DNA of 64,000 nucleotides from a bacterium (GCA_035402825.1 DAONDZ010000003.1:4965-68964), one strand, 5' to 3'. Positions 20,798-45,048 are shown, numbered from the stretch's first letter. The notes: generated by a model not told the origin, from the letters alone. Translations and numbers: made by a program.

Positions 20798-22109
20798 TTT
20801 TTTCTTTTACATATTCTCCGGTCAAACCAAAGTCCCGAACACTGCTAATTTTTACCGGAATTATTTTCCCTAAAAAATTACCCCGCCCTAATCCCAAAAT
20901 GCTGACACTCTTGGCTGTCCTGGTATTTCCCTGCCAGCCGCCTTTTCTGTCCCGACCCGACACCAAGACGTCCACTGTCTTATTGATATACCATTTATTA
21001 TTTTTCAAAGCATCGCGGCGCAATATCTTATTCAAAACCTCTTCTCGCCGTTTCTTCTCAGCCAAAGAGACATCGTCTATCATCCGATATGAAGCGGTAC
21101 CGAAACGAGGGCTATAGCGGGCGACAAAAGCCTGATCAAAGCCCACCGCTTTCATTAGTTTCACAGTGTTGAGAAATTGGCGCTTAGTTTCCCCCGGGAA
21201 TCCGACGATGATGTCGGTGGAAATAGCTATCGGGAGCGCCTGCTTATTCTTCTGAGCGGCCAATCTGATCTTTTTAACCTGGTTTAAATATTTCTGGGCG
21301 GTATATCCCCGATTCATTCTTTTTAATATTTCATCGTCTCCCGACTGAACCGCAAAATGGACTTGCTCGCAAAGATGTTTTCCTTGGCCGATAGCCTTAA
21401 TTAATTCCGGGCTCATATCCTTGGGGTGGCTAGTGGCAAAGCGCAGCCAAAAATCTCCCGGCAAGGCATCAATGGCTTTAATTAACTCCGGAAAGCTCAA
21501 GCCGTTATGAAAACTATTAACATTCTGGGCTATCAAAACAATTTCTTTATACCCTTTCTTAATTAATCCTTTCACTTCGGCGATTATCTGTTTAGCCGGA
21601 CGATATTTTTCCCGGCCGCGGGCATAGGGGACGACGCAATAGGAACAAAAGTTATTACAACCATTGCCTATGGGCACATAGGCTAAAAATGGAGAGTCAT
21701 ATTTAGGAATAATGGAAAGATACTCTCGGGCCGGAGTTTTCTCTTTTTGATTTTTGGTATTTTTCTTTACCCCCAATTCTTGCAAATATCCGTCTAATTC
21801 CAGTAAATCAAAAATTGGCAAAAATAGGTCTACCCGGCCGGATAATTTTTCCTGGACGTCCGATCTCTGACTTAGACAACCGGTGACGACGATAACGACT
21901 TGGGGGTTCTCGTGGCGCAAAGAATTAATCAATCCATAAACTCTGTCTTCGGCGGATTGCCGCACGCCACAGGTCACAAAAAAAGCTAAATCAGCCTGCC
22001 GGCGGTCCTTAGTTTCTTTTAAGCCGTAGTTATCCAAATAAGCCGCCAGGCGTTCGCTGTCGGCTTTATTCATTTGGCATCCGATTGTAAAAATATAATA
22101 TTTTTTCAT
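20772..22109 (-). CDS. miaB: tRNA-i6A37 methylthiotransferase
   Basis: The N-terminal YYIFTIGCQMNKADSE, the radical-SAM motif CNNFCSYCVVPYARG and a TRAM-like C-terminus. Confidence 0.92.
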   Translation of the reverse strand: MKKYYIFTIGCQMNKADSERLAAYLDNYGLKETKDRRQADLAFFVTCGVRQSAEDRVYGLINSLRHENPQVVIVVTGCLSQRSDVQEKLSGRVDLFLPIFDLLELDGYLQELGVKKNTKNQKEKTPAREYLSIIPKYDSPFLAYVPIGNGCNNFCSYCVVPYARGREKYRPAKQIIAEVKGLIKKGYKEIVLIAQNVNSFHNGLSFPELIKAIDALPGDFWLRFATSHPKDMSPELIKAIGQGKHLCEQVHFAVQSGDDEILKRMNRGYTAQKYLNQVKKIRLAAQKNKQALPIAISTDIIVGFPGETKRQFLNTVKLMKAVGFDQAFVARYSPRFGTASYRMIDDVSLAEKKRREEVLNKILRRDALKNNKWYINKTVDVLVSGRDRKGGWQGNTRTAKSVSILGLGRGNFLGKIIPVKISSVRDFGLTGEYVKEKNEKGNNKQ

Positions 22110-23842
22110 TATTTTAGTCTTTCCAATTTATACAAAGCTAAATTATAAGTTACAATTTTTACTTCCCGCATCTTGAGGCCCAATTCTTTAAACTTATAAT
22201 AGTTCAAATATTCCACATCAGCGGATTTAAAACGAAAGTTGAAATAATAGACCGGAATATAACGAGCCAAACGGGCATAGGCCTGGTTCATATTAACATC
22301 ATCAAATAACCCCACTATTACCCGGCGCTCCGGAAAGAACAATTTATCCTGATAGCGAGTGATGATTACTGCTTCCGGTTCGGTTAAAGCAATGACTTCA
22401 TTGAAAATCTGGCGGTCAGTGTCAAAATTATATTGGCTATACCACAGTCCTTCCTCCGATCCGAACAATACAAAATTAACAGAAAGAGCGGAAAAAGCCA
22501 AGGCCATAGCAAAACAGCTTAAATTAGCGAATAATTTCTGTCGTCTGAGTACCAAATAGCTAAAGCGATCCGCACCGTAGGCGGCAAAGATAATCAGCCC
22601 TAAATAGATTGGCAACCAATAACGAGTATAGGAATTGCCAATTGTTAATCGATTAGGATCAGGATTATCACTAAACTTCCAGGAACCGTAATATAAAACC
22701 AAGAGAGCAGTAATAAATAACCAGAGAATTAAAAAGACAATAAATGACCGTGGCCGCTTCCTGATATTTATCAACCAGAACAATCCCCCGACCACGGCGG
22801 GCCAAAAGAGATATGGGAACATATCAATGACGTAGTATTTAAACATCAAAATTGATTGTTTCGGATTCAAACCGAAATAGAAAACGGCGTCTTTAATCTT
22901 CTCCAATCTGTCCACCAAAGTAACTTCAGCGCCGCTGGGCTGGCTAATGGTCAAAACCTTAGCCACTGATTGGTTCATTTCATTATATCCGCTTTGAAAA
23001 AATCCGCCATACAAAACCTTGTTCCAAGACAAGACCGGCAAGATAGCAAAACCTAAGAAAGTCACAAAAACCGCCACTTTAAAAATATCCAATTTTTTGT
23101 AATAAATAATTGTGGCCAGAAATAGCGCCGGCACCAACCAAAGCGCTTCGGCCGTTCTGGTAATTATGGCTAACCCAATAAAAAATCCGGCCAAAGACGC
23201 ATGGAGCAATTTACCCAAAAGCCGGCGAGTTTTGTCCACGTTGGTAAAACAATCTTGGTAGCGCCGCTCGCCTAAAATCATCAGTGACCAAAAATATAAC
23301 CCGATAATCACAAAAGCGATAAACGGAACATTATGGAAGAAGCTGCGGGCGGCATAATAGGTATAAACCGGAAAGACCGACAACAACGCCGCGGCGATTA
23401 ATGCTAGACGGCGGGAGTTAGACCACTTCTCCACCAAGAGATAAAAGAAAATAACGCCCAGAGCTGCTAAGAGCGGAGTGAGATATGGCAAGATGCCTAT
23501 CCCCGCGGCCATGGCTATTTGGCCATAGACCAAAATCATTCCCAAAAAGCTAACCGGTTTTAATAGTCCCCCGTCGCTCTTAATACTACGCGGGTGGATT
23601 ATCTGCTCGCCCGGCAAATTATAGGGCTCATAATAACTGAGAGTGCCGGTCTGGGCATAGAGCTTGGAGAAAAAATAGTTAGCCGTTTCATCCGGAGAAC
23701 TCCATTTCACGAAATTATCGCGTTGGTTATAGAAATTATAGGCCGAAGAAAAGGAAAAACAAATCACCGCCAATCCTAAAACGGCAGAGAAAATCAGTAT
23801 TTTATAGCCCTTGGCGTTAATCATAATTATTTCTTTTCCCAA
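22109..23842 (-). CDS. Polytopic GT-C-type (ArnT/PMT-like) membrane glycosyltransferase
   Basis: At least 10 hydrophobic helices and a first-loop acidic motif (SSPDETANYFF). An alternative start at 23824 (MINAKG) is possible. Its stop overlaps the miaB start (TAATG). Confidence 0.65.
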   Translation of the reverse strand: MGKEIIMINAKGYKILIFSAVLGLAVICFSFSSAYNFYNQRDNFVKWSSPDETANYFFSKLYAQTGTLSYYEPYNLPGEQIIHPRSIKSDGGLLKPVSFLGMILVYGQIAMAAGIGILPYLTPLLAALGVIFFYLLVEKWSNSRRLALIAAALLSVFPVYTYYAARSFFHNVPFIAFVIIGLYFWSLMILGERRYQDCFTNVDKTRRLLGKLLHASLAGFFIGLAIITRTAEALWLVPALFLATIIYYKKLDIFKVAVFVTFLGFAILPVLSWNKVLYGGFFQSGYNEMNQSVAKVLTISQPSGAEVTLVDRLEKIKDAVFYFGLNPKQSILMFKYYVIDMFPYLFWPAVVGGLFWLINIRKRPRSFIVFLILWLFITALLVLYYGSWKFSDNPDPNRLTIGNSYTRYWLPIYLGLIIFAAYGADRFSYLVLRRQKLFANLSCFAMALAFSALSVNFVLFGSEEGLWYSQYNFDTDRQIFNEVIALTEPEAVIITRYQDKLFFPERRVIVGLFDDVNMNQAYARLARYIPVYYFNFRFKSADVEYLNYYKFKELGLKMREVKIVTYNLALYKLERLK

Positions 23843-26187
23843 TAATTAAACACCGGACCAGCCGATAAAGCCCAACGGCCGGAACGCTGATGAGCAAAAA
23901 TTAATATCTTCACATCGCTTAAATCAATATTCAATTTCTGTTTGTTATTACCTGTAATTACCATGGTCTTCTTGCCCAGAGTTTCCACCTTAAACTCTCG
24001 GCCGAGGCGATCAATGAATCGGACATCATCATTGGATAAATCTTGTCCGTTCAATTCTTTGACGATAATACTGCGAGTGGTATTTAATTGCTGACTTAAA
24101 TCATTCAAAGAAGAATTAACTGAACTCAGCTCATAATTGACTTTTAACCCTTCCATCATCCCCTTAATCATTTCAGTGTTGTTAATCAATTCATCTACCA
24201 ATCCTAAATTCGGCTCAACATAGGAATATTCCAAGAATCCGGTATTAGCACTATCGCTAGCCGCATATTTTTGATCCAAGCTGAGCTTGTCTAAAGGTAA
24301 TTGCAAGTCTACCCAGCTGGCCATAGTTCTATTTATTTCCCGAGTCAGATAGTCGCTATTAGCCAAATGACTTAACCGGCCATTAGTCAAAAAAGAGCTG
24401 GCGATTAATTTCAAAGTGGACCAATAATTATGACCGTGCCAAAGATCAGCCGTGGCCAACAAAGCTCGGATCTTCTCGGCTTGAGTCTGATAATTGCGAT
24501 AATTGGCATTTTCATCGAAATAAGAACTCTTGCCGCTTAGAGGGAAAACCAAATTAATCATATCCCCCACCGAAGCCACGCACCGACCGGTGCCGCTTTT
24601 GCAGATAGTATTGTTGCTGGCAGCCGGTTTAGTGCCTTGATAGTTACCCACCGCCGGTGAAGTTAGCTGCTTAAAAAGATAATCATTGGGCCAATAGAAA
24701 TCAGCCAAGAAACGAACGCCCATCTTGGATCTTTCGCTAGTCTTATCCCAGGCACCGCCTAAAGCAGAAAAATTATACTGCGCCAATTGATTCTGCAAGC
24801 GATTAAAATTATCCGGCATTCCCGGAGACTGACTGCCTAAAAGCTCTTCTAAATTATAGTTTTCACCAAAAGTCTTAACCAAGGAATCGCGATATTGTAC
24901 TAGAGTTAAATCATCTCTCAATCCTTTAAAGAAAGCTAGAGTCTTATAAATCCGCGCCCATTTTAATTTCAAATCATAGTTATTGAATAAATCATGGGCC
25001 ATAAAGCTGGCGGACAAAGTATGAATGCGCCAATCGTCAATGTCCAAAGCACAATTAGGACAATCATTGTTCTGATAATACAAAGGAAAGGGCTGGTTAA
25101 GCCAGCGCGCGGTTAAATAAAAATTATTTAGTTTAGCATTAGCTTTGTAGTCATCCGGCACCACAAAATCGGCATAGTTTATAGGATAAAGCATCACCGG
25201 AGATTTAATATTCTGGCGATGTTCCTTGATTAATTCCACTTCTTTCAAGGCGTCCACCCGCAAATAGCCGGGCGAGTTAAAAGTATAAAAAGTAGCTTCG
25301 GCTGGAGTAAAAAGATTCGGATTAACCGTTTTGTCGTCAGTATTAATTTGTCCGGTTTGCGGCTTTAAAAGCTCCAAAGCGGTAGCGGTATAAGCCACTT
25401 CTAAACGAGCGGCTTCCAAAACCAAGTCATTAACCTGCCCCACTTCCCCTAAACGTTTTTGGTAGCGCGCCTTAGCAGTTTCATTTAAATTAGTGAGCAT
25501 TTCAAAAAGGTTGGAATAGAAAATGTCGGCTTCAATATTCTTAAACACCTGCTTCAGGGCGGTTTGGTAGTGATAGGTCAAAAAATCACTGGTTAAAAGT
25601 GGCGGTACCTGGCGCTTGGACAAGGTGTCATAAACCGCATAGAAATTATTAACGCTTTCATTGCCTTTTTGCGAACTAAAAGGATTTTTGATAACCACAA
25701 AGGCCTTGGAGTTTAAAGCCGTCAAAGCCGCATCCAAACTAATTTGCCTAGAAAAATCGTAGTAGTTAATAGCTTGCGTCTTAGCATCCCAAGGCAACTT
25801 ATACTTTGGCAAATTAAAATTAGTTTCTACCGTTAGCGGCTTATAGAAATCTTTAAAGGCTAAATATTCCACTTCGGCGCCTAAGCCAGAAGAAGACACG
25901 CCGCCGTTTCCGCCGTTAGTATCGCCGGGCAATTGAGCGCCGCCGGAAGTATCCAGGCCATCGCCGCCGCTAGGTATTTCTTGATCAATATTCAAAGCAT
26001 TCTCTTCCTCCGGCCAAATATAGGGTCGTCCCCAAATATAGCCCGCAACCAACAAACCCAAAACTACCACGGCGATGATGATTATCATAATCACCTTGCG
26101 GCGGGAAGCAGTCTGAGAAACTGCTTGCGGGTTAACGGTGGAAGCCGCTTGTCCCGGTTTAAAATTAGGACTTTGATTATCAAACAT
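23827..26187 (-). CDS. Membrane-anchored extracytoplasmic protein of unknown function (possibly DUF3160-like)
   Basis: 786 aa with one N-terminal TM helix (VIMIIIIAVVVLGLLVAGYIW), a Gly-rich linker and a large helical domain. The DUF3160 resemblance is from memory only. Confidence 0.55.
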   Translation of the reverse strand: MFDNQSPNFKPGQAASTVNPQAVSQTASRRKVIMIIIIAVVVLGLLVAGYIWGRPYIWPEEENALNIDQEIPSGGDGLDTSGGAQLPGDTNGGNGGVSSSGLGAEVEYLAFKDFYKPLTVETNFNLPKYKLPWDAKTQAINYYDFSRQISLDAALTALNSKAFVVIKNPFSSQKGNESVNNFYAVYDTLSKRQVPPLLTSDFLTYHYQTALKQVFKNIEADIFYSNLFEMLTNLNETAKARYQKRLGEVGQVNDLVLEAARLEVAYTATALELLKPQTGQINTDDKTVNPNLFTPAEATFYTFNSPGYLRVDALKEVELIKEHRQNIKSPVMLYPINYADFVVPDDYKANAKLNNFYLTARWLNQPFPLYYQNNDCPNCALDIDDWRIHTLSASFMAHDLFNNYDLKLKWARIYKTLAFFKGLRDDLTLVQYRDSLVKTFGENYNLEELLGSQSPGMPDNFNRLQNQLAQYNFSALGGAWDKTSERSKMGVRFLADFYWPNDYLFKQLTSPAVGNYQGTKPAASNNTICKSGTGRCVASVGDMINLVFPLSGKSSYFDENANYRNYQTQAEKIRALLATADLWHGHNYWSTLKLIASSFLTNGRLSHLANSDYLTREINRTMASWVDLQLPLDKLSLDQKYAASDSANTGFLEYSYVEPNLGLVDELINNTEMIKGMMEGLKVNYELSSVNSSLNDLSQQLNTTRSIIVKELNGQDLSNDDVRFIDRLGREFKVETLGKKTMVITGNNKQKLNIDLSDVKILIFAHQRSGRWALSAGPVFNYWEKK

Positions 26188-27925: not shown

Positions 27926-29101
27926 CTATTGTTTGATCAATTTTTTGGTGAATAATTGATCATTCAAAGTAGCTTTTAAAAAGTACATGCCAGCCGGCAA
28001 ATTTGACAAGTCAATTACGGTTTTGCCGTCGGTGAAGGTGGGAATCAGGACTTCGTTTCCGGAGATATCAAGAATTTTGGCATTTTCCAATTCTTCATTG
28101 ATATAAACCCGGTCGGAGGTGGGGTTAGGATAGGCGTTAATTTCTTCGCCCACTTCTTCCATTACTCCTGAAACCTGGTCATAAAGGTAAACCGATCCTA
28201 CGCTAACGAAATAGATATGATGCTCATCGGCTACATAAATATTATCAGCAAAAAGCAAACCGGAAACCTGGTGCCAACCGCCCAAATTGGAAAAAATTCC
28301 CCAAGCGGCCGTCATTATAATACTGCCGTTTTCCACTTTCCGAGCGTGGTAAGCACAGCCATATATATCGGGATCAGGTAGGGTAAAAACTTCACCGTAT
28401 GTCTTGGCTGCAGTATTGTAATCCAGAATTCTGTTCCTGGTAATAATGAAAATATTGCCATTATCTTGGGCAATTATTTCTTGGATTATTTCACCAGGCA
28501 ATTCTAATTCCTGATTAAAATCGGTGCCAGAGACTTTGAATAGCCGGCCATTAACCGTAGTATCATCCACGGTATAACCAGACGAGACAAAAACTGATCC
28601 ATTACTTTTGGCCGCCCCGGTAAAATCATTAGGACTGTCGGGGTTGCCATAAATATCAACCCAGCCAGAGCCATCATTGTGAAAAACCCGAGACTTTCCT
28701 ATAATCCAATAATCATTTTCTTCAAAAATAAATGATTTATTGAGCTCTTTAAACGTGTATTGATTGGGTTTAAACCAAGTCCAGCTATCGGTAGATTGAT
28801 TGTACTCATAAATTTCTTCATTAATAGTACCACCAACGCCAACGATGTTGCCCCCAAATTCAGCCATGGCAATGTCATGAGAACCATAGGCCCCAGGAGT
28901 AGAATGAAACGGCCAATAATCAACACCGTCAAACTTGACAAAGCCGACGAGAGAGCCGGTGGCAAAAATAGTATTGCCAACCCCAGCAATAGCGAAGAGA
29001 GCTTTCCCCTGGCTACTATACCAGGTGTCCATTTGGACAAATTGGGCAGAAGATGCGATTGATGCTAAAAGCATCACAAGTACGACAATAAACTTTTTCA
29101 T
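27926..29101 (-). CDS. Secreted beta-propeller-like protein with a T9SS type-A C-terminal sorting domain
   Basis: A signal peptide (MKKFIVVLVMLLASIASSAQ) and a C-terminus (AYPNPTSDRVYI...ILDISGNEV...IDLSNLPAGMYFLKA...TKKLIKQ) matching the Por_Secre_tail pattern. A strong SD (AGGAG) is present. Confidence 0.85.
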   Translation of the reverse strand: MKKFIVVLVMLLASIASSAQFVQMDTWYSSQGKALFAIAGVGNTIFATGSLVGFVKFDGVDYWPFHSTPGAYGSHDIAMAEFGGNIVGVGGTINEEIYEYNQSTDSWTWFKPNQYTFKELNKSFIFEENDYWIIGKSRVFHNDGSGWVDIYGNPDSPNDFTGAAKSNGSVFVSSGYTVDDTTVNGRLFKVSGTDFNQELELPGEIIQEIIAQDNGNIFIITRNRILDYNTAAKTYGEVFTLPDPDIYGCAYHARKVENGSIIMTAAWGIFSNLGGWHQVSGLLFADNIYVADEHHIYFVSVGSVYLYDQVSGVMEEVGEEINAYPNPTSDRVYINEELENAKILDISGNEVLIPTFTDGKTVIDLSNLPAGMYFLKATLNDQLFTKKLIKQ

Positions 29102-29213: not shown

Positions 29214-32200
29214 TTATTGAGAATTTCCCAAAGAAAAGCTATCGCAAGCGCTAGTTTCGTTTTCGCACTTGTAGAATCCCCAATTATCCCGAACACCAAT
29301 TCTAACTGCTTTCAAATCTCCGGTTACCGTGTTCTGAGGATTATAGAAGTAGACAAAATTAAAGGTTTGAGCCGGATTCGGCTTTTCATCCACCATCGTC
29401 GCTACGCTTATTCTATTTGGCCCCTCGCCCCAATCAACTGATAGTCTGGCAATCGGAACTTGTTCGGGGTCAACGTCAACATTGAAAGATAAAGTATAGA
29501 AGTCGGCTTGTTTAATATTGTAACCGTTACTGGTATGAACCATTTCATTACCCTCGCTATCTCTCAAGTGAACATTGCTAATAGTCGGCTTCACACCGCA
29601 CCAAGCGCCGCCCACTCTAGTATTATTGGTACAAGTGGGGATTCTAGGGGTAGAGCCAGGAACAGCTGGACCGATATTTTCATTTCCGATAGGAAATTGG
29701 CTATAGTCATAAGTAGTACTGCCCCAAGTAAATTTCAAGAATATTCGAGTCAAAGACTGCATGGCCTTGCTAGGAGTGTTGCCAAAATTATCAAACCCAG
29801 TCCAACTTGGAGTCAAGCTCACGCCGAATTGACTATAGTTAGAAGTCGCCGGAACTATCGCTCGGCAATTGCTGATACCGGTATTACCAATCTTATGATT
29901 ATCATCAAAGCAACCAAACGGAGTGCCAGATTGACCGCTGCCTAAAGTAGTGAAAGTGGCGGCGGCATATTTAGCACCGAAGAAATTATTAGCGGTGTCT
30001 ACGGAATAAGCGCTGAAAGGACTCTGGAAGAAAGTCGCCGGAGTAGTGGCATTTAATATTCTGTCCACCCAAGCCAAAGAAGCGGTGACGGTAGAGAGAC
30101 AACGCGGTTTATAGTCGGCCATCTTAATCAAGCAAGCTTTTTGGCTAGTACCATTCACAGTCAACCATTGGGCGTTAGCCATGGAATTACATTCAGCTTC
30201 CGTATAATGACGATCCATTATTCTAACCTCGCCATCACCGGCCACCGGCACACCGTCATATAAGTACCAACCATTTTCAGTGGAGGTTACCGGGGAAAAA
30301 TTGATTGTACCGCAGTTAGAACAGCTGCCGGGACAATTATTGCTGCCCTGACAAGCGGTACAAGCTTGAGAAACATTGATTTCGTAGGTACCACTACCAT
30401 TAGCATGAACGCTATCATTAATAACATTACTAGGTTCAGAGAATAATTTGCCAACTCCGGACGGAACAACAAAAGTAACTTTTCGGCCATAATAATCAGG
30501 CACGCCACCCGACGGACAAATATTGGTGTCGGGTTCATCAATAGCATGTCGACAATGCGCTATGGCGCTATCGTCACTATACCAGTTATAGGCCTTATAT
30601 CCAGGATAAAGCGCTGGATTAGGGGCCGACGGAAAACCTATAACCGGGTCATTTGGATCAAACTGAGGATTATAACCATTATCAAAATTAGAGCAGTGAA
30701 TATCATTAGTAGCCATAACAAAAGCGCCTTGACGATATTCCACAAAGTCAAAGCTGGCGTCCACAATGGCGCAATATTCTGGAGTATCAGCGATACCGGA
30801 AGTAGCCCCGGCATTCTGGCCTTTAACATTATCAATCGGATACCACATCAAGCAGACGCTGGGATTCTTAGAATCATACTCCAAGCAATAGCCATATAGA
30901 CCATTAGAGACGGTGTTTTGGTTCTTGCTCACGCAAGTTAGACTATCTTGTTTCGGATATAGACGGCAGCTCTTAGGCAGATAACGGTTATTATCAACCT
31001 TCAAAACCGGATCCATGTTGATATTATCAAAGAAAGCTTGGCCGCCACCGTTAGCCGACAAAACGAACTTAACATTACTATTGGAAATAGCCGGAAAAGA
31101 GAACTTAATCACCTGGCGTTTCCAACCGTTATTTTCAGAGAAAACGGTGGTGGAAGTGCTAACACCATTACCAATTTCCACTTTAGCGCCTCCGGCTGCC
31201 GCGTTGGAGTTAACCATGAGACTGAGGAAATAATCCTTATTAGGACTGGCCTTAAAGCCGGCATCAATAGTAACCGGGCCGGAAGCGGATAAGAATCCTT
31301 GGCCATCAGCCGGATAAGAAACATTCTTATTTAAGATTGCCCCATCTTCGGAGTCTAAAATTACTTTATTTAAACTATTATTCAATCCGGTAACGCCAGT
31401 GTTGGTTAGGGTTTCAAAATCCCAGGCGCCGGTAACGCCACCGCCCACCTCATACATATTGGCCAAGTAATAATAACCGAGCTTAGAATAGCCGGCCGTA
31501 TTCTTGTCTTCGCCGGAAGCAAAATTGTGGGCTTGGGCCGGACGATTAACAAAGTTTTCGCATTTACCAGTGTCAGATAGCTTATCGCACTCTCCTAAAG
31601 CATAGCAGGTCTCTTCGTTGGTTACCGGATCAATAGACTTGCTCATACAAGACAACCATTTATTACAAACTCGGTCCGGCTTAACCTTCACCAAGACATT
31701 GCTATCACAATTATTCAAATTCGGATCACAGCTTTCTGCTGAACCGCTGTTATAGGAATTAGTATAAGCATTCCAATTAAGCGCAGTCAGACCGGAGAAA
31801 CCGCTCACCTTTCTTTCGTTGAACATAATACAACCAGAATCAAAGCTCGGAGCGCCGTTGCAAGTTTCCTTGTCCACTTCACCGGACAATTGATAACCAA
31901 TTTGGGTGGCGCGGATATTAATCACCTTGCCATTTCCAGCTCCACCGACGGTACAGCTGGTATTATCCATGGAGTTAATCAACAGATTAGCCTTGGTGGT
32001 GGTAGCGGTGAAAGTCACCACATTTTGACCGGTGCCAAAAATATTATTATTGGCCAATATTCTAACTTGGCCCGGACAGCTCAAAACAGTCGGTTTGGTA
32101 TTAGAGCCGTTTACGGAGAAAGAATATAATTTATTTTTCTGAAGGAAAATATTCTGGGTCTGCAAAGCAGTGCCGGCGATAGTAGAAGTCGCCCAGCTAT

Positions 32201-35200
32201 CACCCGGAATATTATCTTTGTTGGTGTCTCCCCAATTCGGATTGACGATGATGTTCGGCGAGAATTCGCTGGACGGATCAATATATTCACTACAACCGGA
32301 AGAAACCGCGCTACAAGTGCCGACCATGCCTTGCGGCTGATAGACCCTGTTCCCTGCACCGCCGAAACCGATGGTCTTCAAACCGTCCACCGGGCAAAGA
32401 TAATCGTTCTCATCTAAAATACAAGTACCGACTGAGCCGCCAGCGGCGCAATCGCTGTTACTGGCGCAAAGACGATTAATAGATTCAGTCACAATGCCCG
32501 ATTGGCTGACGCTGATCTTGCCATCATTATTCATATCGCAGCGCTTAATCGGCTTCTTGTACCAACGCTTCGGCAAGTTCATGCCGGTGGCCTGTTTCGG
32601 TTCTCGCCATTCACAGACATTTTCGCCCGGATCACGGAAATAACTGACTTGGCCATCAGCGCTAGTCCAAAGGTCGCAGCCTACTTCACCGCTGCGGCAT
32701 AAGGTCTCATAATATTTATCCGGATTGTTCTTAACATAAACATCGGAATATAGATTTTGAGTAGCGACATCCGGATTATAATTTTTCTGAACGCCTAATC
32801 GGCTGCAACCCTTATCGGTGTTGCTGCAGCTCTTAGCCGGATCAACAATGGCATAAATCATCTGATCGGCCGCTACCGAAACGCAATCGGCGCCGTCGGT
32901 ACCGTCGCAAACATTATTAACCGGAGTATTTTCATTAAAGGCCGTAGCTTGATAATCAGCCGAATTCTTAGTATCCACTAGTAGTTCGCAACCCACCGAT
33001 TGCTCGCCGCATAATTTGCTGAAATGGCGCAAATTATGGGTGGTGCTATTGCGGTCGGTATAACTGGCGCAACCCAAGTTATAGTTGGCGCCGCGATAAA
33101 CATTGAAGACATCATAATAACAAGCATCGGGGGTCTGCCAGCTATCCTGAATCAAATAATAGCGATTGGTAATTTCGGTGATAATTAGATTATCAAACCA
33201 GAAGTTGCCATTAGCGGAAAAAACAATACTTTCATCAGCCGTCGGCAGATGGTCCAAATTATCCAAGTTGGCTTGATAGAACTGCCACTGGCCATTGCCG
33301 GAAATATTAATATCGGAATTATTTTGGTTAGTGACATTAAGAGCCTGAGCTTCGCTGCCATTGGTAAACTTAATTTTCAAAATCGTATTCTGGTTAGCTT
33401 TAGCCACGAATTTCACGGTATAGGATCCGCCCTGTTTTAACCCCGGAATCTTTTTGGCTACGCCATAATTAGGCAATGGGTCTTGAGCCCAAGCTACCGG
33501 AGCGATGCGATTCCACAGATTTTTCAAAGCGACCTTAACTTTATTATCAACCTTAGCGGAAATCTGCGGCATGATATTGAAATTACAGCTCTGACCGCCA
33601 CGATTATATTTTAAAGAATGTCCATTCTTATTCAAAGCATCAGTATCAACGCTGGAGCTATCCTGGCACAATCCAGTCCAGCCATCGTTTGCTCCTTCAA
33701 AGCTGAAAATAGAAATGTTTCTGACATTATTGCCATAATTACCATTATATTCCCGGCAACCATTTTCAGAAGCTGCACAGCTCTGGCCTTCGCCCGGAAT
33801 AGCTTGATAGATACAAGCGCTTTGGTTAGTATCCCAAGTTCCGCCGCTCGGACAATTCTGATCGCTAGGGCTATTGCTCAAACGATAAGGATGACAATTA
33901 TCAGAACAAGAAACGGTATTGGAATAAAGATGATAAGAAACCTCACCGGCCTTATTATAGAATTGGCGACAATCCGGATTATAGGACGGATGGGTCGGCG
34001 GCAAATTAAAGATCGCCGCATTACAGGAAGTACTATCATCGCTTAAAACATAGGGTTCATCTAAAACCGCTTTTAAGGTATAGGCCACTAATTGATAGCC
34101 GCCGCTACCCGGGTTGCCCCAACTATAGAAGACGCCGCATTGATGGGTATCCGGTTTAATACATTGGCGCAAAGAAACATGATATTCTTTAGCTTCTCCG
34201 CCCTGAGCTAGTTCGTCTAGGTTGGTAAACTCACTACAACCGACAGCGGTGGCGCTACACTTAGTAGCGGTCTTCGGAATAAAGTTAGCCGCTACCTTAT
34301 CGGTAAAATTAGTTTCCTTTTGGATGTAGCTGTCATAACCGACGCATTGGGCGGCACAATAATCGCTAGCCGCAGCCTTGGCGGCGACTTTAAAATTATC
34401 GCTGGAAGTAAATAGATCGCAACCCACTTCGCTAGCATTACATTTTCGGGCAAAGTTTTGACAAATCTCCGGAGCACCGGGTTTCAAAGAAAAATCTTTA
34501 GTGCCGGAAAAAGGATTAACATAGCAGAAAGATTCCAAATAATTCGGAATCAATTTTTGATAAATTAAATTGTTGGTACCGTAATCGCTATAACTAGTTC
34601 CAGCGGTTCCCAATTCTAATTTCATCTGATCAACCACGCAAGTGTTGGAATCAACGGCGATATGGACTTGGTTGGTGTTAACATTGTCCGGGAAAATAAA
34701 AGTAGAGCTGTAATAATTCCAATCAGTAGAAGTAGACAAAGGCTTAGTGGTGTCATTGCCGGCACCGCCTAAGATAAATTGATTGCCGGCTGAACAATTC
34801 TTAGCATAGAAAGAGAAAGTATAAGCCTGGCCAGCGACATTATAATCAGTGGGGCCGACAGAAATATTCCGACTTAGCAGTGCATTTAATTGCAGGCCAT
34901 TATTGCTAAAATAACCGTTCGGGGTCTGGCTAACACCGGCGCCATTCCAGCCGCCGCGGTCTAATCCAGCTTCAAAATCACTGTTAATTAAAATGTTATG
35001 ACCCAAATTAGATTTAACTTTAATAAACTCCTGGCAGCTTTCAGTGCTGGCGTCGCAAGTTTCTACCTTGCTGTTAAAATAAATCTGCTGCGACGGATTC
35101 CAGCTTAAGTAATTAGTGGAGCTGGCATAAGCACCAGTCAAAGCATAAGGCTTACAGCCCACATTATCACTGGTACAAGTAGAATAATCTAAAGTATTTT

Positions 35201-36971
35201 CCAAATAAGCCACTTGATTATCAGAACCATTTTTAGTGAAGGCTTTGCAAGTATTCAATACCGGATCGCAGCCATCGGAACCAAAATTCCAAGTCCGTTT
35301 TTCTTCGGTACAATAACCATAGGCCTCGCAAGTGCCATCGCTCTTTTCCTTAATACAACTTTGTTCATCAGCACAATAGCTATCTGCCCGAGTCACAATA
35401 ACCTGAGCCGCTAAAGTAGTGGCGCCGGTAGAAGGATCAGTTTGTTTAGAAATAAAAGTCTTGTCTAAAACTTGGCCGCCGGCACCTTGGCGTTTACAAT
35501 AATTCAAAGGAGCCTTCAAGACCCAATTAGGGTCAACTAAACCTTGGCACCAAGCGCCCGGAACAAAACCCTGGCTAAACTCATTATAATTATCAGCCGG
35601 ATCAAAACAGGAAACCAAATCTAATAATGTGGTCGGCTGATTCAATTCTTCCGCTTTCAATAAAGCAGTCTCCCAACCCACCGGCACGATGCGATATTTT
35701 CTTAAAATAGATAAGGAGCGCAAGGAATAACCTTGGTTAGCGTCAATTTCTCGTCTAAAGCGCCAAGACCCATTCAAATATCCCGCCTTGATACCTTCAA
35801 TTACGGTCTGATTACTTTCAATAGCTTGGCGGAACTGTTCATCAATAACGCAATTAGTCGGACCGACATTAGATTGTCCCGGACAAACGGTTAATTCCGC
35901 TAAAATATCATAATCACCTCGAGTATCGAAGCGAGGTTTTAAAACTTTAGTCAATTGATTTTGCAAAGCCACACTGCTCCGATTAGAAAAAGGATCGTAA
36001 TCGGCATTGACTAAGCCGGAGAAAGTTGAACCGCCGCTCGTACCGCCGTCCTTAGGCTTGTTGCTTCCCAATTTGCCGGTAAGATTATTAAAAGCGGTAA
36101 TGGCTAATTGATTTAAAAACACATTAGCGGCGTCCACTAAGGCATCGCCGGTAAACTTGCCCAAAGATTGCGTCTGTAAATTTTTAGCCTGAGTTAATTG
36201 ATCCTTAGAATTATCTGGTGGCGCTTCTTGTTTACCACCTATATTGCGGACATCCAGCCAACCGCCTTTAGCCGCCACCTCTTTGCCGGTACTATCTTTA
36301 ACATCAGTCTTCACATCATCAATACCACTCATCAAAGATAAAGAAATAGTTAAATCGCTACCGGTGGGGCTGAACTGATCACCTAATTTCTTTAGGAAGT
36401 CGCCGCTGCCCATATCTTTTATCTTATTAATCTGGTCAGACCAAGCTTCTTTCATCCTGCTAAAAGTACAAACCGGCTTACTAGCTCCAGAACCGGGGGC
36501 GGTGAATTGGGTTAGCCCCAAACCGATTCGAGCTTTAACATCCAAATTAGGTTCGCAAAGATTAATATTCAAAGGCTTGCCATCTTTACCGGTAAAAGCC
36601 CAGGTGTTTAAACCGTTAATAAACTCTCCGGCCGCATTATCGGCCAGATCTTTGGCGTATTCCCCCCAGCCTTTAGTGACAAACAATGGTTGTTGGCCTT
36701 TGCCGCCGGAACCGATATAAGTAGCGGAATCAATAGCAAAACGATTTAAGGCATTTTGGACTACCGATCCCAAAGCCTTGGAAGCTACCTTTTTTAAACT
36801 CTTAGTGACAAATTCAGTCAATTTATCCCAAACTAATTTTGGAATATCTTCGACAGGGATAGCTTGAGCCGGCTGCGGCTTCAAAGCTATCATACCAGAA
36901 ACTAAAATAGCTAGTAACAAAATCCCAGTAACCGGTTTCTTGAATGATTTTTGGTAGTTTGGTAGCCGCAT
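29214..36971 (-). CDS. Giant Cys-rich modular surface protein (2,585 aa)
   Basis: An uninterrupted 7.76-kb ORF with an N-terminal signal/anchor (GILLLAILVSGMIAL..AQA) and ~90 Cys by hand count. Four CBM4/9-like jelly-roll openings and a C-terminal PKD-like module (VDWGEG...VRIGVRDNWG). Confidence 0.85.
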   Translation of the reverse strand: MRLPNYQKSFKKPVTGILLLAILVSGMIALKPQPAQAIPVEDIPKLVWDKLTEFVTKSLKKVASKALGSVVQNALNRFAIDSATYIGSGGKGQQPLFVTKGWGEYAKDLADNAAGEFINGLNTWAFTGKDGKPLNINLCEPNLDVKARIGLGLTQFTAPGSGASKPVCTFSRMKEAWSDQINKIKDMGSGDFLKKLGDQFSPTGSDLTISLSLMSGIDDVKTDVKDSTGKEVAAKGGWLDVRNIGGKQEAPPDNSKDQLTQAKNLQTQSLGKFTGDALVDAANVFLNQLAITAFNNLTGKLGSNKPKDGGTSGGSTFSGLVNADYDPFSNRSSVALQNQLTKVLKPRFDTRGDYDILAELTVCPGQSNVGPTNCVIDEQFRQAIESNQTVIEGIKAGYLNGSWRFRREIDANQGYSLRSLSILRKYRIVPVGWETALLKAEELNQPTTLLDLVSCFDPADNYNEFSQGFVPGAWCQGLVDPNWVLKAPLNYCKRQGAGGQVLDKTFISKQTDPSTGATTLAAQVIVTRADSYCADEQSCIKEKSDGTCEAYGYCTEEKRTWNFGSDGCDPVLNTCKAFTKNGSDNQVAYLENTLDYSTCTSDNVGCKPYALTGAYASSTNYLSWNPSQQIYFNSKVETCDASTESCQEFIKVKSNLGHNILINSDFEAGLDRGGWNGAGVSQTPNGYFSNNGLQLNALLSRNISVGPTDYNVAGQAYTFSFYAKNCSAGNQFILGGAGNDTTKPLSTSTDWNYYSSTFIFPDNVNTNQVHIAVDSNTCVVDQMKLELGTAGTSYSDYGTNNLIYQKLIPNYLESFCYVNPFSGTKDFSLKPGAPEICQNFARKCNASEVGCDLFTSSDNFKVAAKAAASDYCAAQCVGYDSYIQKETNFTDKVAANFIPKTATKCSATAVGCSEFTNLDELAQGGEAKEYHVSLRQCIKPDTHQCGVFYSWGNPGSGGYQLVAYTLKAVLDEPYVLSDDSTSCNAAIFNLPPTHPSYNPDCRQFYNKAGEVSYHLYSNTVSCSDNCHPYRLSNSPSDQNCPSGGTWDTNQSACIYQAIPGEGQSCAASENGCREYNGNYGNNVRNISIFSFEGANDGWTGLCQDSSSVDTDALNKNGHSLKYNRGGQSCNFNIMPQISAKVDNKVKVALKNLWNRIAPVAWAQDPLPNYGVAKKIPGLKQGGSYTVKFVAKANQNTILKIKFTNGSEAQALNVTNQNNSDINISGNGQWQFYQANLDNLDHLPTADESIVFSANGNFWFDNLIITEITNRYYLIQDSWQTPDACYYDVFNVYRGANYNLGCASYTDRNSTTHNLRHFSKLCGEQSVGCELLVDTKNSADYQATAFNENTPVNNVCDGTDGADCVSVAADQMIYAIVDPAKSCSNTDKGCSRLGVQKNYNPDVATQNLYSDVYVKNNPDKYYETLCRSGEVGCDLWTSADGQVSYFRDPGENVCEWREPKQATGMNLPKRWYKKPIKRCDMNNDGKISVSQSGIVTESINRLCASNSDCAAGGSVGTCILDENDYLCPVDGLKTIGFGGAGNRVYQPQGMVGTCSAVSSGCSEYIDPSSEFSPNIIVNPNWGDTNKDNIPGDSWATSTIAGTALQTQNIFLQKNKLYSFSVNGSNTKPTVLSCPGQVRILANNNIFGTGQNVVTFTATTTKANLLINSMDNTSCTVGGAGNGKVINIRATQIGYQLSGEVDKETCNGAPSFDSGCIMFNERKVSGFSGLTALNWNAYTNSYNSGSAESCDPNLNNCDSNVLVKVKPDRVCNKWLSCMSKSIDPVTNEETCYALGECDKLSDTGKCENFVNRPAQAHNFASGEDKNTAGYSKLGYYYLANMYEVGGGVTGAWDFETLTNTGVTGLNNSLNKVILDSEDGAILNKNVSYPADGQGFLSASGPVTIDAGFKASPNKDYFLSLMVNSNAAAGGAKVEIGNGVSTSTTVFSENNGWKRQVIKFSFPAISNSNVKFVLSANGGGQAFFDNINMDPVLKVDNNRYLPKSCRLYPKQDSLTCVSKNQNTVSNGLYGYCLEYDSKNPSVCLMWYPIDNVKGQNAGATSGIADTPEYCAIVDASFDFVEYRQGAFVMATNDIHCSNFDNGYNPQFDPNDPVIGFPSAPNPALYPGYKAYNWYSDDSAIAHCRHAIDEPDTNICPSGGVPDYYGRKVTFVVPSGVGKLFSEPSNVINDSVHANGSGTYEINVSQACTACQGSNNCPGSCSNCGTINFSPVTSTENGWYLYDGVPVAGDGEVRIMDRHYTEAECNSMANAQWLTVNGTSQKACLIKMADYKPRCLSTVTASLAWVDRILNATTPATFFQSPFSAYSVDTANNFFGAKYAAATFTTLGSGQSGTPFGCFDDNHKIGNTGISNCRAIVPATSNYSQFGVSLTPSWTGFDNFGNTPSKAMQSLTRIFLKFTWGSTTYDYSQFPIGNENIGPAVPGSTPRIPTCTNNTRVGGAWCGVKPTISNVHLRDSEGNEMVHTSNGYNIKQADFYTLSFNVDVDPEQVPIARLSVDWGEGPNRISVATMVDEKPNPAQTFNFVYFYNPQNTVTGDLKAVRIGVRDNWGFYKCENETSACDSFSLGNSQ

Positions 36972-36993: not shown

Positions 36994-37623
36994 CTATTGA
37001 TTAGAATTGATTGATTCCAAATAGCTCTTCATTAGATCCTCGTCGCTAATCTGATCCAAGGTAGCCTTGTCCATACCGTTGTCTAATAATAACTGGCGCA
37101 AAGAAGCGGCATCACTACCCCCTTCCAACATGGACTCCAAAGAACTGGAATCAGTAGTAGTCGGAGTAGTTTCAATGCCCAAAATATTGCTAATAGTAGA
37201 AGTTGGGGTGCTGGTAGACAAAAGCACTTCATGACAAACCTGACCGGAAGCGCAATTAGGATCAGTGCCATGCAAGATTTCATCCTTATCATTAAATCCA
37301 TCACTGTCGGTATCTTCCAAATAAGGCGAGGTGCTATAAACATTAATTTCTTCATAGTCGCTAATACCATCTTTGTCGGTGTCAGTAGTGTAGTCATTAG
37401 CTGTTGTAGAAGTAGCGGCCGCGTTTTCGGTAGTAGCTAAGCTGCGGCTATAATCAAAAGGAGAATAGATCTGATGGCGGATATTCCAGACGCCAAAAAT
37501 CAGGACAACCAAACTAAAAAAAGCCAAAACCAGAAGAGCTTTTTTCTGATTATGGCTTAAAGGCGCCAAACTATCAGCCGGCGCGCCATTAACTATCTTT
37601 CGCTTGTTAGAAGCGTTCTCCAT
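36994..37623 (-). CDS. Single-pass membrane protein with thrombospondin-type-3-like Ca-binding repeats
   Basis: A TM helix (ALLVLAFFSLVVLIFGVW), then DTDKDGISDYEE and DTDSDGFNDKDE...GTDP, then a Thr/Ser-rich linker. It ends 22 nt upstream of the giant gene. Confidence 0.75.
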   Translation of the reverse strand: MENASNKRKIVNGAPADSLAPLSHNQKKALLVLAFFSLVVLIFGVWNIRHQIYSPFDYSRSLATTENAAATSTTANDYTTDTDKDGISDYEEINVYSTSPYLEDTDSDGFNDKDEILHGTDPNCASGQVCHEVLLSTSTPTSTISNILGIETTPTTTDSSSLESMLEGGSDAASLRQLLLDNGMDKATLDQISDEDLMKSYLESINSNQ

Positions 37624-42336: not shown

Positions 42337-43026
42337 ATGAACACCACTATGCCCAGACATCGCTGGTACAAATCTTGGTGGGGAATTTTCTTGATTCTAA
42401 CCGCTATTTTAGTGGTTAGCTTTGTATTAGCTTTTGCTTTTTATATCAAAAGCCTGGCCAACAAGATGAATTCGGAAAGAGCTAGCCAATTGTTAAGCGC
42501 TCAGCAAGCCGCTAATCAAAGACTTTTAGACGGCCTTAATCCCTATTACCTAGGAACTTCCACTCCCCAGATAACCATAGTTGAATTCGGCGACTTCGCC
42601 TGTTCTCGTTGTCGGGAATCATTCACTGCCATTCACGACCTAGCCGCTTTGCATCCGGATACGGTAAAAATAATTTGGCGCGACTTTTTGGGCCACGATG
42701 ATTCGTTCGGTCTGGCTCTAGCCGCTCGTTGCGCCGGCGAGCAAGGCAAGTTTTGGGAAATGCATGATGGCTTATTTTTGCATCAAGGCACTTTAAACGA
42801 AGAACGAATATTGGATTTAGCCAAACAATTCGAATTGAACACCACTCAGTTCTCCCAATGCATCAAGGATAATAAATACGCTAGACAGATAGCGAAAGAT
42901 AAATCAGACGGTGAATTACTTAAAGTAGTCGGCACTCCAACCTGGTTTGTTAATAACAGCTATCGTATAGAAACGCCTTTGAGTTTAGAAAATCTACAAA
43001 AAATAATTGAAGAATTAAATAAATAA
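42337..43026 (+). CDS. Membrane-anchored DsbA-family thiol:disulfide oxidoreductase
   Basis: An N-terminal TM helix and a thioredoxin-fold CxxC active site in VEFGDFACSRCRE. Confidence 0.85.
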   Translation: MNTTMPRHRWYKSWWGIFLILTAILVVSFVLAFAFYIKSLANKMNSERASQLLSAQQAANQRLLDGLNPYYLGTSTPQITIVEFGDFACSRCRESFTAIHDLAALHPDTVKIIWRDFLGHDDSFGLALAARCAGEQGKFWEMHDGLFLHQGTLNEERILDLAKQFELNTTQFSQCIKDNKYARQIAKDKSDGELLKVVGTPTWFVNNSYRIETPLSLENLQKIIEELNK

Positions 43027-43877: not shown

Positions 43878-45038
43878 ATGAAAGACAAAAATCGCCAAAT
43901 ATTAGAAGGCTCGCGCGCTATTGCCTTAACCATTAAAAACATCGCCCCGGATGTTATTTCCGCCTATCCGATTACTCCCCAAACTCATATCGTGGAAGAC
44001 TTGGCCAAATTCAAAGCGGACGGCTTAGCTAATTATGAATATCTCCGTGCCGAAAGTGAATTTGCCGCCGCCTCTATAGTTCTCGGCGCCAGCGCCGCCG
44101 GCAGCCGGGTTTATAGCGCGACTAGCTCTCAAGGTTTATTACTCATGACCGAGGTTATCTTCAGTATTACCGGCCTGCGCCTGCCCATAGTCATGACTTG
44201 CGCTAATCGCACCATCTCTTCTCCAATTAATATTTGGAACGATCACCAAGACATCATGGCCTTAACCGCTTCAGGCTGGATAATGCTTTTTGCGGAAACT
44301 AATCAAGAAGCGGTCTTCCAACACATCTTAGCCTACAAAATAGCCGAGACTACAAAATTACCGGTGATGGTTAATGTGGACGGCTTTATCCTCACTCATT
44401 CCTATGAACCCCTATCCATTCCGGAGGCGGGGAAAATAAAAAAATATTTGGGCCAATATCACCCGGCGGCCGGCACCTATTTGGACACCAAAAATCCGGT
44501 GACTCTCGGTTCTTTTGTCAGCCCCAAAGACTATTTTGAAATCCGCCAAGAGCTCAATGATGATTTAATAGCTAGCCTAAAAACTATCAATCAAGAATAT
44601 TTTAAATGTCATAAAGCCCTGGGCACATCTGGAACTAAAAATGAAAATGGTTTGTTTGAATACTATGGTCCTCGAAACGCCAAAACAATAATCATCGCTC
44701 TGGGCTCAGTCATTGGCACCATCAAAGATGTGGCTGATCAGCAAAAGAACGTCGGGGTGATAAAAATCAAATGCTTTAATCCTTTCCCCTATCAAGACTT
44801 AGCTAAAATATTAAAATCAGCTAAGCAAATCGCTATTTTAGAAAAAGCCACCAATCTCGGTTCAGCCGCGCCGCTCTTTTCTCGAATTTTGCCGATTCTG
44901 AACCGTGATCAGGTAGCCAAAAGCTATATTGCCGGTTTGGGCGGCCGCGATATCACTCAAAAGATGATTCAGGGGATAATAAATGATATAATGAAGACAA
45001 AGAAAACTAGCTTAGATTCTAAATTTGTTAATAAATAA
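43878..45038 (+). CDS. porA: Pyruvate:ferredoxin oxidoreductase alpha subunit
   Basis: GSRAIALTIKNIAPDVISAYPITPQT; 386 aa. Confidence 0.9.
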   Translation: MKDKNRQILEGSRAIALTIKNIAPDVISAYPITPQTHIVEDLAKFKADGLANYEYLRAESEFAAASIVLGASAAGSRVYSATSSQGLLLMTEVIFSITGLRLPIVMTCANRTISSPINIWNDHQDIMALTASGWIMLFAETNQEAVFQHILAYKIAETTKLPVMVNVDGFILTHSYEPLSIPEAGKIKKYLGQYHPAAGTYLDTKNPVTLGSFVSPKDYFEIRQELNDDLIASLKTINQEYFKCHKALGTSGTKNENGLFEYYGPRNAKTIIIALGSVIGTIKDVADQQKNVGVIKIKCFNPFPYQDLAKILKSAKQIAILEKATNLGSAAPLFSRILPILNRDQVAKSYIAGLGGRDITQKMIQGIINDIMKTKKTSLDSKFVNK

Positions 45039-45048
45039 AATAAAATAT

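Follow-up and report, generated by a model that had tools for sequence, protein, structure and literature searches.

A recurring cysteine-pair motif that probably staples module boundaries in a giant secreted protein family of Patescibacteria

A giant protein of an uncultured, Falkowbacteria-like member of the Patescibacteria carries ten copies of a short two-cysteine motif, and these copies probably staple the chain with disulfides at the borders of its domains. We put the probability at roughly 70% that this is a secreted giant whose module boundaries are stapled for stability by intra-motif disulfide clasps. What the analysis shows directly is the motif with its invariance and its place among the modules, the signals for secretion, the coupled loss of cysteine pairs and the lack of database matches; the bond, the hairpin shape and the role in stability are inferred. 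The motif is a structural detail, not a new kind of system, and by itself reveals no new biological mechanism. The window analysed is a stretch of 64,000 nucleotides (GCA_035402825.1, DAONDZ010000003.1:4965-68964), and the giant ORF (2585 aa, 90 Cys) occupies 29214..36971 on its minus strand, as do all features of the motif region given below. The protein belongs to a secreted family of Patescibacteria (Ca. Falkowbacteria and relatives) present in 238 GTDB species genomes, with orthologs of 2500-2800 aa, every one annotated as hypothetical.

The N-terminal residues 1-37 (36861..36971, minus strand), read directly from the sequence, form a signal peptide or signal anchor, with KSFKK in front of a hydrophobic stretch and AQA behind it, and hold the sole hydrophobic 19-mer of the giant protein, with no second membrane segment. 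This signal-like segment and a nearby DsbA-like gene together point to an extracytoplasmic location. The DsbA-like gene (42337..43026, plus strand; Pfam Thioredoxin_4 3e-21, DSBA 2e-13) lies 5.4 kb from the giant gene, in a gene order common with Ca. Falkowbacteria CP066698, and encodes a thioredoxin-type protein with a probable N-terminal membrane segment, a candidate extracytoplasmic disulfide oxidoreductase. Directly upstream of the giant gene (36994..37623, minus strand) is the gene of a 209-aa protein with TSP3-type calcium-binding repeats (TSP3_bac 1e-9) and a hydrophobic, probably membrane-spanning stretch; it is 43% identical to the gene abutting the giant gene in CP066698 and is thus a conserved neighbour. 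The genes leuS and ksgA also adjoin the giant gene in a conserved order (one relative examined).

All ten strings quoted in the earlier note were found at their residues, starting at aa 599, 639, 844, 905, 1065, 1321, 1382, 1425, 1553, and 1704, which correspond exactly to window positions 31821-35177. C-x6-C was seen 14 times vs 3.1 expected (highest count in any of 5000 shuffles, 10), and C-x5-GC-x2-[FYWL] eight times vs 0.04 expected in the 5000 shuffles, or vs 0.22 (shuffle maximum 4) when the Cys positions were held fixed. The recurrence of a disulfide-type Cys pair stands as first described, but the residue two after the second cysteine (Cys2) is not "acidic or small": it is E in four copies and L in three, with P, R, and M in the others. 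Directly after Cys2 stands K, Q, D, S, R, E, or I. One copy, at aa 1704, has a C-x9-C ring, unlike the C-x6-C of the other nine, and the first list omitted a conserved Gly-less copy (aa 568-578) and a variable pair (aa 1748-1755).

Across the family, the motif has the consensus C-[NSD]-[AS]-x-x-[VAS]-G-C-x-[ELQR]-[YFLWM]. Among 369 motif copies out of 41 orthologs, Gly preceded Cys2 in 90%, position +10 was Y/F/L/W/M in 95%, position +1 was N/S/D/T in 68%, and position +9 was Glu in 47%; no conserved His stood beside the motif. Conservation therefore does not stop at the two cysteines, as that of a chance pattern in the earlier note's terms would have, but takes in the Gly and positions +1, +9, and +10 as well. 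In a second sample of 228 full-length relatives (29-100% identity), the nine canonical C-x6-C pairs were invariant, the sole non-Cys cell, in one relative at C599, being a gap in the alignment. Conservation was 1.0 for the framework Cys, 0.72-1.0 for the Gly, and 0.69 for the tail, while the loop interior reached 0.49 vs a protein average of 0.43; a framework that is kept around a loop interior near the protein average is the pattern of a scaffold.

The motif region is edged by two twin C-x5-C modules, one N-terminal (C533, C539, C548, C554; 35310..35375) and one C-terminal (C1769, C1775, C1789, C1795; 31587..31667). C-terminal to the first lies the Gly-less copy CDPVLNTCKAF (aa 568-578; 35238..35270; C-x6-C-x2-F), with both Cys in 228/228 relatives. 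The larger repeat is a supermodule of motif, jelly roll, and motif that occurs three times and uses six of the ten copies. In the first supermodule, copy 2, CDASTESCQEF (aa 639-649; 35025..35057), and copy 3, CNASEVGCDLF (aa 844-854; 34410..34442), are the N- and C-terminal clasps of jelly-roll (CBM-like) module 1 (~aa 660-810; 34542..34994; AlphaFold2 pLDDT ~54-87; Foldseek matches to CBM22/CBM16). In the second, copy 5, CAASENGCREY (from aa 1065; 33747-33779), and copy 6, CGEQSVGCELL (aa 1321-1331; 32979..33011), flank module 2 (~aa 1082-1270; 33162..33728), which contains a low-confidence insert. In the third, copy 9, CSAVSSGCSEY (aa 1553-1563; 32283..32315), and copy 10, CNGAPSFDSGCIMF (aa 1704-1717; 31821..31862), the variant C-x9-C ring, flank module 3 (~aa 1571-1691; 31899..32261). 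Copy 2 is in register with copies 5 and 9 (93% hhalign probability for copy 9), and copy 3 with copy 6; copy 10 aligned with copy 3 in the supermodule profile alignment. The first supermodule (aa 630-865) matched the second (aa 1056-1340) with a probability of 97%, the motifs at either end falling in register, and its alignment with the third was weaker (43%).

The remaining four copies stand alone, as probable hairpin loops, between the supermodules: copy 1, CTSDNVGCKPY (aa 599-609; 35145..35177), copy 4, CSATAVGCSEF (from aa 905; 34227-34259), copy 7, CSNTDKGCSRL (aa 1382-1392; 32796..32828), and copy 8, CRSGEVGCDLW (aa 1425-1435; 32667..32699). Copy 4 opens and copy 5 closes a Cys-rich middle domain (aa 905-1075; 33747..34259), modelled by AlphaFold2 at pLDDT 82-95 for aa ~909-1030 and 74-90 on to ~1070, for which there was no Foldseek match below E 0.03 in PDB or BFVD and no Pfam or PDB sequence match.

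The placement of the motif in Cys-rich stretches beside jelly rolls, as first proposed, is borne out by these three modules, which DSSP of the models gives as beta-rich and which Foldseek matched to CBM22, CBM16, and CBM4. The matches to PDB had E-values of 1e-7 to 1e-5 (target TM 0.70-0.71 for CBM22 4xuo/4xup and 0.61 for CBM16 2zey), a weak profile match to the CBM4 module 1GUI was found, and precomputed PF02018 (CBM_4_9) matches exist on orthologs. The motif-bracketed modules thus have the beta-sandwich jelly-roll fold of CBM4, CBM9, CBM16, and CBM22, and are predicted to be binding modules; the giant protein itself stays below the Pfam gathering threshold for a CBM, with only CBM_4_9_1 at 15.3 bits vs a cut-off of 27. 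Only the CBM-like modules of the family have solved relatives, and to our knowledge no CBM has been described that is held at either end by conserved disulfide clasps.

The motif copies had also been read as if marking a small knot or hairpin domain. An independent domain or knot it is not, because the copies have only ~12-20 residues in common (profile-profile alignment sets them in register mostly across 11-21 columns only), while a hairpin-like loop agrees with the secondary structure in AlphaFold2 models, namely an eight-residue ring followed by a beta strand that in most copies begins right after Cys2. The better model gives copy 844 as strand, ring, and strand, at pLDDT 62-68 only, and places a helical turn inside the ring of copies 905 and 1065; in the 1200-residue model, most motif-bearing linkers have pLDDT <50.

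Evidence on cysteine pairing comes from the relatives that lack a pair. C1704 and C1714 were lost as a pair in 11 of the 228 relatives and singly in none, and in the variable C-x6-C pair CDPNLNNC (aa 1748-1755; 31698..31730) C1748 and C1755 were both present in 123, both absent in 97, and discordant in 8. This coupled loss in variant copies supports intra-motif pairing. Because the N-terminal clasp 1553/1560 is kept where the C-terminal clasp 1704/1714 is lost, the two clasps do not bond each other. Because the canonical pairs show no variation, how they pair is extrapolated from the two variant copies together with nearest-neighbour logic, a rule that does not hold throughout the giant protein, since the twin C-x5-C modules cross-pair: C539 and C548 were lost together in 2 of the 228 relatives, which argues for cross-pairing in the first twin module over intra-pair bonds, and C1775 and C1789 of the second were likewise lost together in 2 of 228. 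Counting against extracellular disulfide clasps is a pyruvate:ferredoxin oxidoreductase encoded in the window, which suggests an anaerobic lifestyle.

From these observations we propose that each copy would be a short beta-hairpin-like element, in which a strand leads up to Cys1, the ring C-[NSD]-[AS]-x-x-[VAS]-G-C follows, with one helical turn in two modelled copies, and a second strand, x-[E/L]-aromatic, would begin immediately behind it. An N-cap would be served well by the N, S, or D at +1, and a C-cap by the Gly. Within each copy, the two cysteines would bond each other after Sec export, probably helped by the DsbA-like oxidoreductase, and the rings would then be covalent staples fixing the chain at the entry and exit of each globular module, with six of them clasping the triplicated supermodule and four stapling the Cys-rich regions in between. 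For so long an extracellular protein, the likely gain would be a stiffer chain that better withstands proteases or unfolding; binding may fall to its variable jelly rolls. The proposal predicts about ten local disulfides in addition to cross-paired twin C-x5-C caps. The clasp motif offers a simple sequence signature for the family and maps module boundaries, which is useful when designing expression constructs.

Rings of this spacing are known elsewhere. In the CX6CC motif of gamma-type retroviral and filoviral fusion subunits (MLV TM, Ebola GP2), the C-x6-C ring closes as a structural disulfide that is essential and extremely conserved (PMC11575397). However, the viral motif has an adjacent third cysteine for the inter-subunit bond, while none of the ten copies has CC; it always follows a 17-residue immunosuppressive domain (PMC11575397), while the upstream flanks of our copies differ and share no common 17-residue block; and each viral protein has a single copy, in a helical chain-reversal region, while the giant has ten copies with beta strands on either side. 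The two motifs show no relationship in sequence. A non-catalytic CX6C in the a domains of PDI proteins (yeast Pdi1p, PDIA3, ERdj5, TXNDC5) closes, or is predicted to close, as a structural disulfide and, as here, the spacing recurs once per repeated domain in multi-domain proteins, those of the secretory pathway (PMC9868663). These rings lie inside a thioredoxin fold, whereas ours lie at module boundaries, and the giant protein has no Pfam match to the thioredoxin family.

An unlikely alternative to structural staples is that the rings are functional sites, either labile or redox-sensitive disulfides that alter extension or binding, or ligand- or host-contact loops like those of protease inhibitors. 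The oxidoreductase that suggests an anaerobe would be in keeping with reversible disulfides, the flanking jelly rolls are predicted to bind, and the loop of a given copy can be strongly conserved, e.g., C-x-A-S-E-N-G-C-R-E-Y-N-G-N at 1065; yet conservation of the loop interiors averages 0.49 and differs among copies, the framework being the conserved part, and no partner protein is known. A short ring with one disulfide at a hairpin tip does resemble cystine nooses and Bowman-Birk reactive loops. The latter are C-x7-C loops with a conserved Thr/Ser/Pro pattern and serve protease inhibition. Such a pattern is absent from the motif copies, and no Bowman-Birk or other inhibitor family in Pfam matched the giant protein.

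A more speculative form of this thought, to which we give little credence, is that the ten rings and the flanking twin C-x5-C caps are distributed labile disulfides in a near-universal envelope giant of Falkowbacteria and serve redox-gated attachment. If so, the oxidation state, in largely anoxic water, would switch the giant between a rigid form and an extensible or binding-competent one, and ultra-small bacteria would have an attachment device of their own, with a new clasp motif and a middle domain unmatched in PDB and BFVD. Patescibacteria are a large, almost wholly uncultured share of bacterial diversity whose means of holding surfaces or hosts are mostly unknown, and the secreted family, ~2,700 residues long and found in at least 238 species-level genomes, is without annotation.

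It is very unlikely that the cysteine pairs bind metal (zinc or iron-sulfur), two copies forming a four-cysteine site. Nearby copy pairs are common (599/639, 844/905, 1382/1425) and metal sites too typically have invariant cysteines, but C-x6-C is not a usual metal-knuckle spacing, variant copies vanish one pair at a time and never four cysteines together, the motif has no conserved His beside it, no metal-binding Pfam family matched, and the export signal and nearby DsbA-like gene speak against it.

Still less probable is descent from a known cysteine-repeat family (EGF-like, thrombospondin type 1 or 3, Myxococcus Cys-rich, furin-like/GCC), even though the carriers of such repeats are, like the giant protein, extracellular, modular, and Cys-rich, and the neighbouring gene encodes a TSP3_bac repeat protein. 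The earlier note recognised no named family, and the motif regions indeed drew no match from Pfam or NCBIfam at E<=1, the motif profile had 0 matches in PDB sequences at E<=10, and Foldseek had no match to the motif or the cysteine-rich regions. In a profile search of the kind that it had proposed (1.84 billion proteins), the best 150 matches all belonged to the giant-protein family, with 7-10 copies each, and no annotated repeat family was matched among these or in Pfam. As for the families from which the motif was said to differ, EGF-like and thrombospondin type 1 repeats, like furin-like and GCC2_GCC3 repeats, were found at E<=1 neither on the giant protein nor on 41 orthologous segments, and Pfam and NCBIfam at this threshold returned no myxococcal repeat. 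The Myxococcus cysteine-rich repeat (Pfam DUF4215 and a TIGRFAM model) has C-x-D-G-type acidic positions, and all these repeats have four to six or more cysteines each, vs two per copy here. The bacterial TSP3 repeat (PF18884) is Asp-rich and calcium-binding (D-x-D-x-D-G-x-x-D); it had no match on the giant protein and was found only in neighbouring small proteins.

Maturases can target short conserved motifs with Cys, but a recognition site for post-translational modification (e.g., a thioether cross-link or lipidation) is scarcely credible here, as the motif is part of a folded protein of 2585 aa and not of a precursor peptide, and no maturase gene lies nearby, the only radical-SAM gene of the window being of MiaB type (UPF0004 and TRAM domains). 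A chance pattern, for which 90 cysteines might seem to allow, is ruled out by the shuffling and by the invariance of the pairs across relatives, and the profile alignments set the copies in register.

The giant protein is encoded by an ORF at window positions 29214-36971 (minus strand; 2585 aa, 90 cysteines), and all ten motif strings quoted in the earlier note were found in it, with the first cysteine (Cys1) at aa 599, 639, 844, 905, 1065, 1321, 1382, 1425, 1553, and 1704; the window span of 31821-35177 assigned to them matches these residue positions exactly. The motif is an unnamed disulfide-type hairpin, a 12-residue clasp, and its consensus from 369 pooled copies is [LT]-C-[NSD]-[AS]-x-x-[VAS]-G-C-x-[ELQR]-[YFLWM]. 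Of these copies, 90% have the Gly and 95% have a hydrophobic or aromatic residue at the final position, so that conservation extends past the two cysteines, the point on which the earlier note had hung its own reading. Three alignments of full-length relatives (41, 121, and 228 sequences, with identity down to 29%) showed the nine canonical C-x6-C pairs to be invariant, the sole non-Cys cell (C599 in one sequence) being an alignment gap. The Gly-less copy at aa 568-578 is likewise invariant. The last C-x6-C of the protein (aa 2569-2576) is not conserved, and variability is highest in the C-terminal third (conservation 0.30). A conserved IDWGDG-type motif is found at the C-terminus (window 29214-29600, minus strand), which we take to recall PKD-like beta sandwiches.

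The copies, compared profile to profile in windows of 30 residues on each side, were always in register, usually across just 11-21 columns (the best non-overlapping pairs were 639 vs 1553, 93%, and 905 vs 1065, 82%). Because the register is kept over so few columns, the motif is a short element, not a domain in its own right. Thus the initial reading of an unnamed disulfide-type hairpin flanking jelly rolls stands, while its extension to a small repeated domain or knot does not. A larger unit does repeat: aa 630-865 aligned end to end with aa 1056-1340 (97% probability, E 1.7e-10) with both end motifs in register (639 with 1065, 844 with 1321), and the segment 1544-1730 gave a weaker alignment with aa 630-865 (43%), in which motifs 1553 and 1704 likewise fell at the matched ends. 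A clasp / jelly roll / clasp unit is accordingly present three times; six of the ten copies form its N- and C-terminal clasps, and the triplication of this unit explains their recurrence. The unit cores are the jelly rolls, and the remaining four copies (599, 905, 1382, and 1425) lie in Cys-rich stretches between units, in agreement with the proposed location in Cys-rich linkers flanking the jelly rolls.

An AlphaFold2 model of aa 530-1729 (1200 residues, 29-sequence alignment) gave confident jelly rolls (pLDDT about 54-90), which matched CBM22, CBM16, and related modules in Foldseek (E 1e-7 to 1e-5, target TM-scores up to 0.71). Since most motif linkers had pLDDT below 50, this model was used for secondary structure and module borders alone; in it, a strand starts at or beside the second cysteine (Cys2) in most copies. 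A second model (aa 830-1085, trimmed 41-sequence alignment) reached a mean pLDDT of 75.5 and a pTM of 0.65, with block means of 82-95 from about aa 909 to 1030 and of 74-90 from there to about aa 1070. In this model, copy 844 has a strand just ahead of Cys1 and the strand DLFT right after Cys2, on either side of a coil ring of eight residues; the ring of copy 905 holds a three-residue helical turn followed by the strand SEFTN; and Cys1 of copy 1065 ends a long strand, with a helical turn within the ring. Judging from residue propensities, a helical turn in the ring could be N-capped by the N, S, or D at position 1 and C-capped by the Gly before Cys2. The Cys-rich domain that separates jelly roll 1 from jelly roll 2 (aa 905-1075; window 33747-34259, minus strand; pLDDT mostly 82-95) is the best-conserved part of the giant protein (0.62). 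Neither Pfam nor PDB sequences matched it, and Foldseek gave no match either, whether in PDB (best E 0.35) or in BFVD (best E 0.03); as modeled it may represent a fold without a solved relative.

The two cysteines of each copy would bond to each other. The pair 1704/1714, a variant with a C-x9-C ring, is missing in 11 of 228 relatives, each time with both cysteines, and the pair 1748/1755 is complete in 123, entirely gone in 97, and discordant in 8 of them. Relatives without 1704/1714 keep 1553/1560, the N-terminal clasp of the same jelly roll, which rules out a bond between the two clasps of one jelly roll. The twin C-x5-C modules that bracket the whole motif region (aa 533-554 and 1769-1795; window 35310-35375 and 31587-31667, minus strand) behave differently from the rings, in that their inner two cysteines are lost jointly in rare relatives (C539 with C548; C1775 with C1789). 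This joint loss implies that the disulfides of the twin modules would be cross-paired in a ladder, unlike those of the C-x6-C rings, and the contrasting loss patterns indicate that the co-loss method separates two topologies. That a structural disulfide can close a C-x6-C ring is known from other proteins, namely from CX6CC in the fusion subunits of retroviruses and filoviruses (PMC11575397) and from PDI-family domains with their non-catalytic CX6C (PMC9868663); both are like the motif in geometry, not in ancestry.

The most likely role of the motif, to which we give a probability of about 70%, is to staple module boundaries covalently in a long, predicted extracellular protein. The only hydrophobic segment of the giant protein is N-terminal and followed by AQA, a predicted Sec-type signal. 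Mean conservation across relatives was 1.0 for the motif cysteines, 0.72-1.0 for the Gly before Cys2, 0.69 for the tail after Cys2, and 0.49 for the ring interior, as compared with 0.43 for the whole protein and 0.34-0.42 for the jelly rolls. Conservation that favors the framework so strongly over the ring interior has the look of a scaffold element in these alignments. The rings might instead be functional or redox-labile loops, which we consider unlikely, because a ligand-contacting loop is expected to keep its interior constant and here the interior scores only 0.49. That the Cys pairs are metal sites is less probable still.

We hold it very improbable that the motif is a diverged member of a known repeat family. 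In the motif-bearing regions, no match at E<=1 came from Pfam or NCBIfam scans of the giant protein or from Pfam scans of 41 orthologous segments. The noise below threshold comprised CBM_4_9_1, Gp34_trimer (E 0.03-0.08), and GtfA_EBD (0.012); Gp34_trimer was dismissed as a chance match because it appeared in just 2 of 41 members. PDB sequence searches with the protein and with whole-family, aa 830-1085, and motif profiles yielded nothing relevant, only a weak match of the whole-family profile to the 1GUI CBM4 module, and for the aa 830-1085 model Foldseek found nothing below E 0.03 in either PDB or BFVD. The view that the motif lies outside the named Cys-repeat families is thus upheld by the Pfam/NCBIfam and PDB sequence searches. 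A motif profile of 30 columns built from 144 copies had 911 matches at E<=1e-3 among 1.84 billion representative proteins (546 at E<=1e-10; 80 at E<=1e-30); the best 150 of these 911 were without exception giants 2400-3450 aa long, whole or as fragments, that have 7-10 copies apiece, and no protein of the searched set has a longer array. A modification site is more doubtful again as an explanation of the motif. A chance pattern in a Cys-rich protein has a negligible probability, for in 5000 shuffles of the giant protein C-x6-C was expected 3.1 times (maximum 10) against 14 observed and C-x5-G-C-x2-[FYWL] 0.04 times against 8, or 0.22 times (maximum 4) with the cysteines frozen and the other residues shuffled, so that Cys-rich composition explains neither the spacing nor the surrounding residues.

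A motif HMM matched no other ORF in the 64-kb window. The motif is of value mainly as a signature, and as a map of the domains, of an uncharacterized, widespread, putative surface giant of Patescibacteria. A search of 5.8 billion proteins gave 469 relatives; the best 120 of them are nearly all 2500-2800 aa long with 35-74% identity and are annotated just as "hypothetical", some with a precomputed PF02018 (CBM_4_9) match, and the named sources among them are Patescibacteria, Ca. Falkowbacteria, Pacebacteria, and Parcubacteria. In a scan of one genome per GTDB species, 238 genomes were found to encode the giant protein, and most of them bear the title Ca. Falkowbacteria or Patescibacteria. Many TPA assemblies with the protein (loci L003-L082) are titled "uncultured Gammaproteobacteria bacterium", which looks like a placeholder or wrong taxonomic label. 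In the literature on Cys-rich giants of Patescibacteria, CPR, and Falkowbacteria we found no published work on this family; a CPR pilus preprint deals with other proteins.

The gene order DsbA-like, exo/endonuclease-phosphatase, leuS, ksgA, small membrane protein, and giant gene is common to the window and CP066698, a complete genome of Ca. Falkowbacteria (identities: LeuRS 66%, KsgA 57%, small protein 43%, giant protein 39%). The small protein (209 aa; 36994-37623, minus strand), directly upstream of the giant gene, carries two TSP3-type calcium-binding repeats, a C-x5-C pair, and a hydrophobic stretch that is probably membrane-spanning; its 43% identical counterpart also adjoins the giant gene in CP066698, and we regard the small protein as a probable conserved partner. 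The DsbA-like thioredoxin (42337-43026, plus strand) is encoded 5.4 kb from the giant gene and probably has a membrane segment at its N-terminus; it is a candidate oxidase for the giant protein, which could form roughly 45 disulfides. Two large genes on the strand of the giant gene encode a 577-aa protein with no family match (22109-23842, minus strand) and a 786-aa DUF3160 protein (23827-26187, minus strand). A 391-aa protein (27926-29101, minus strand) has a Por_Secre_tail domain (T9SS type A sorting) at its C-terminus, and CP066698 has a similar gene downstream of its giant gene; a type IX secretion system would not be expected in this lineage. A 432-aa ORF with a T4SS_pilin domain (45025-46323, plus strand) lies between pyruvate:ferredoxin oxidoreductase subunit genes, and a similar gene adjoins POR_N in CP066698.
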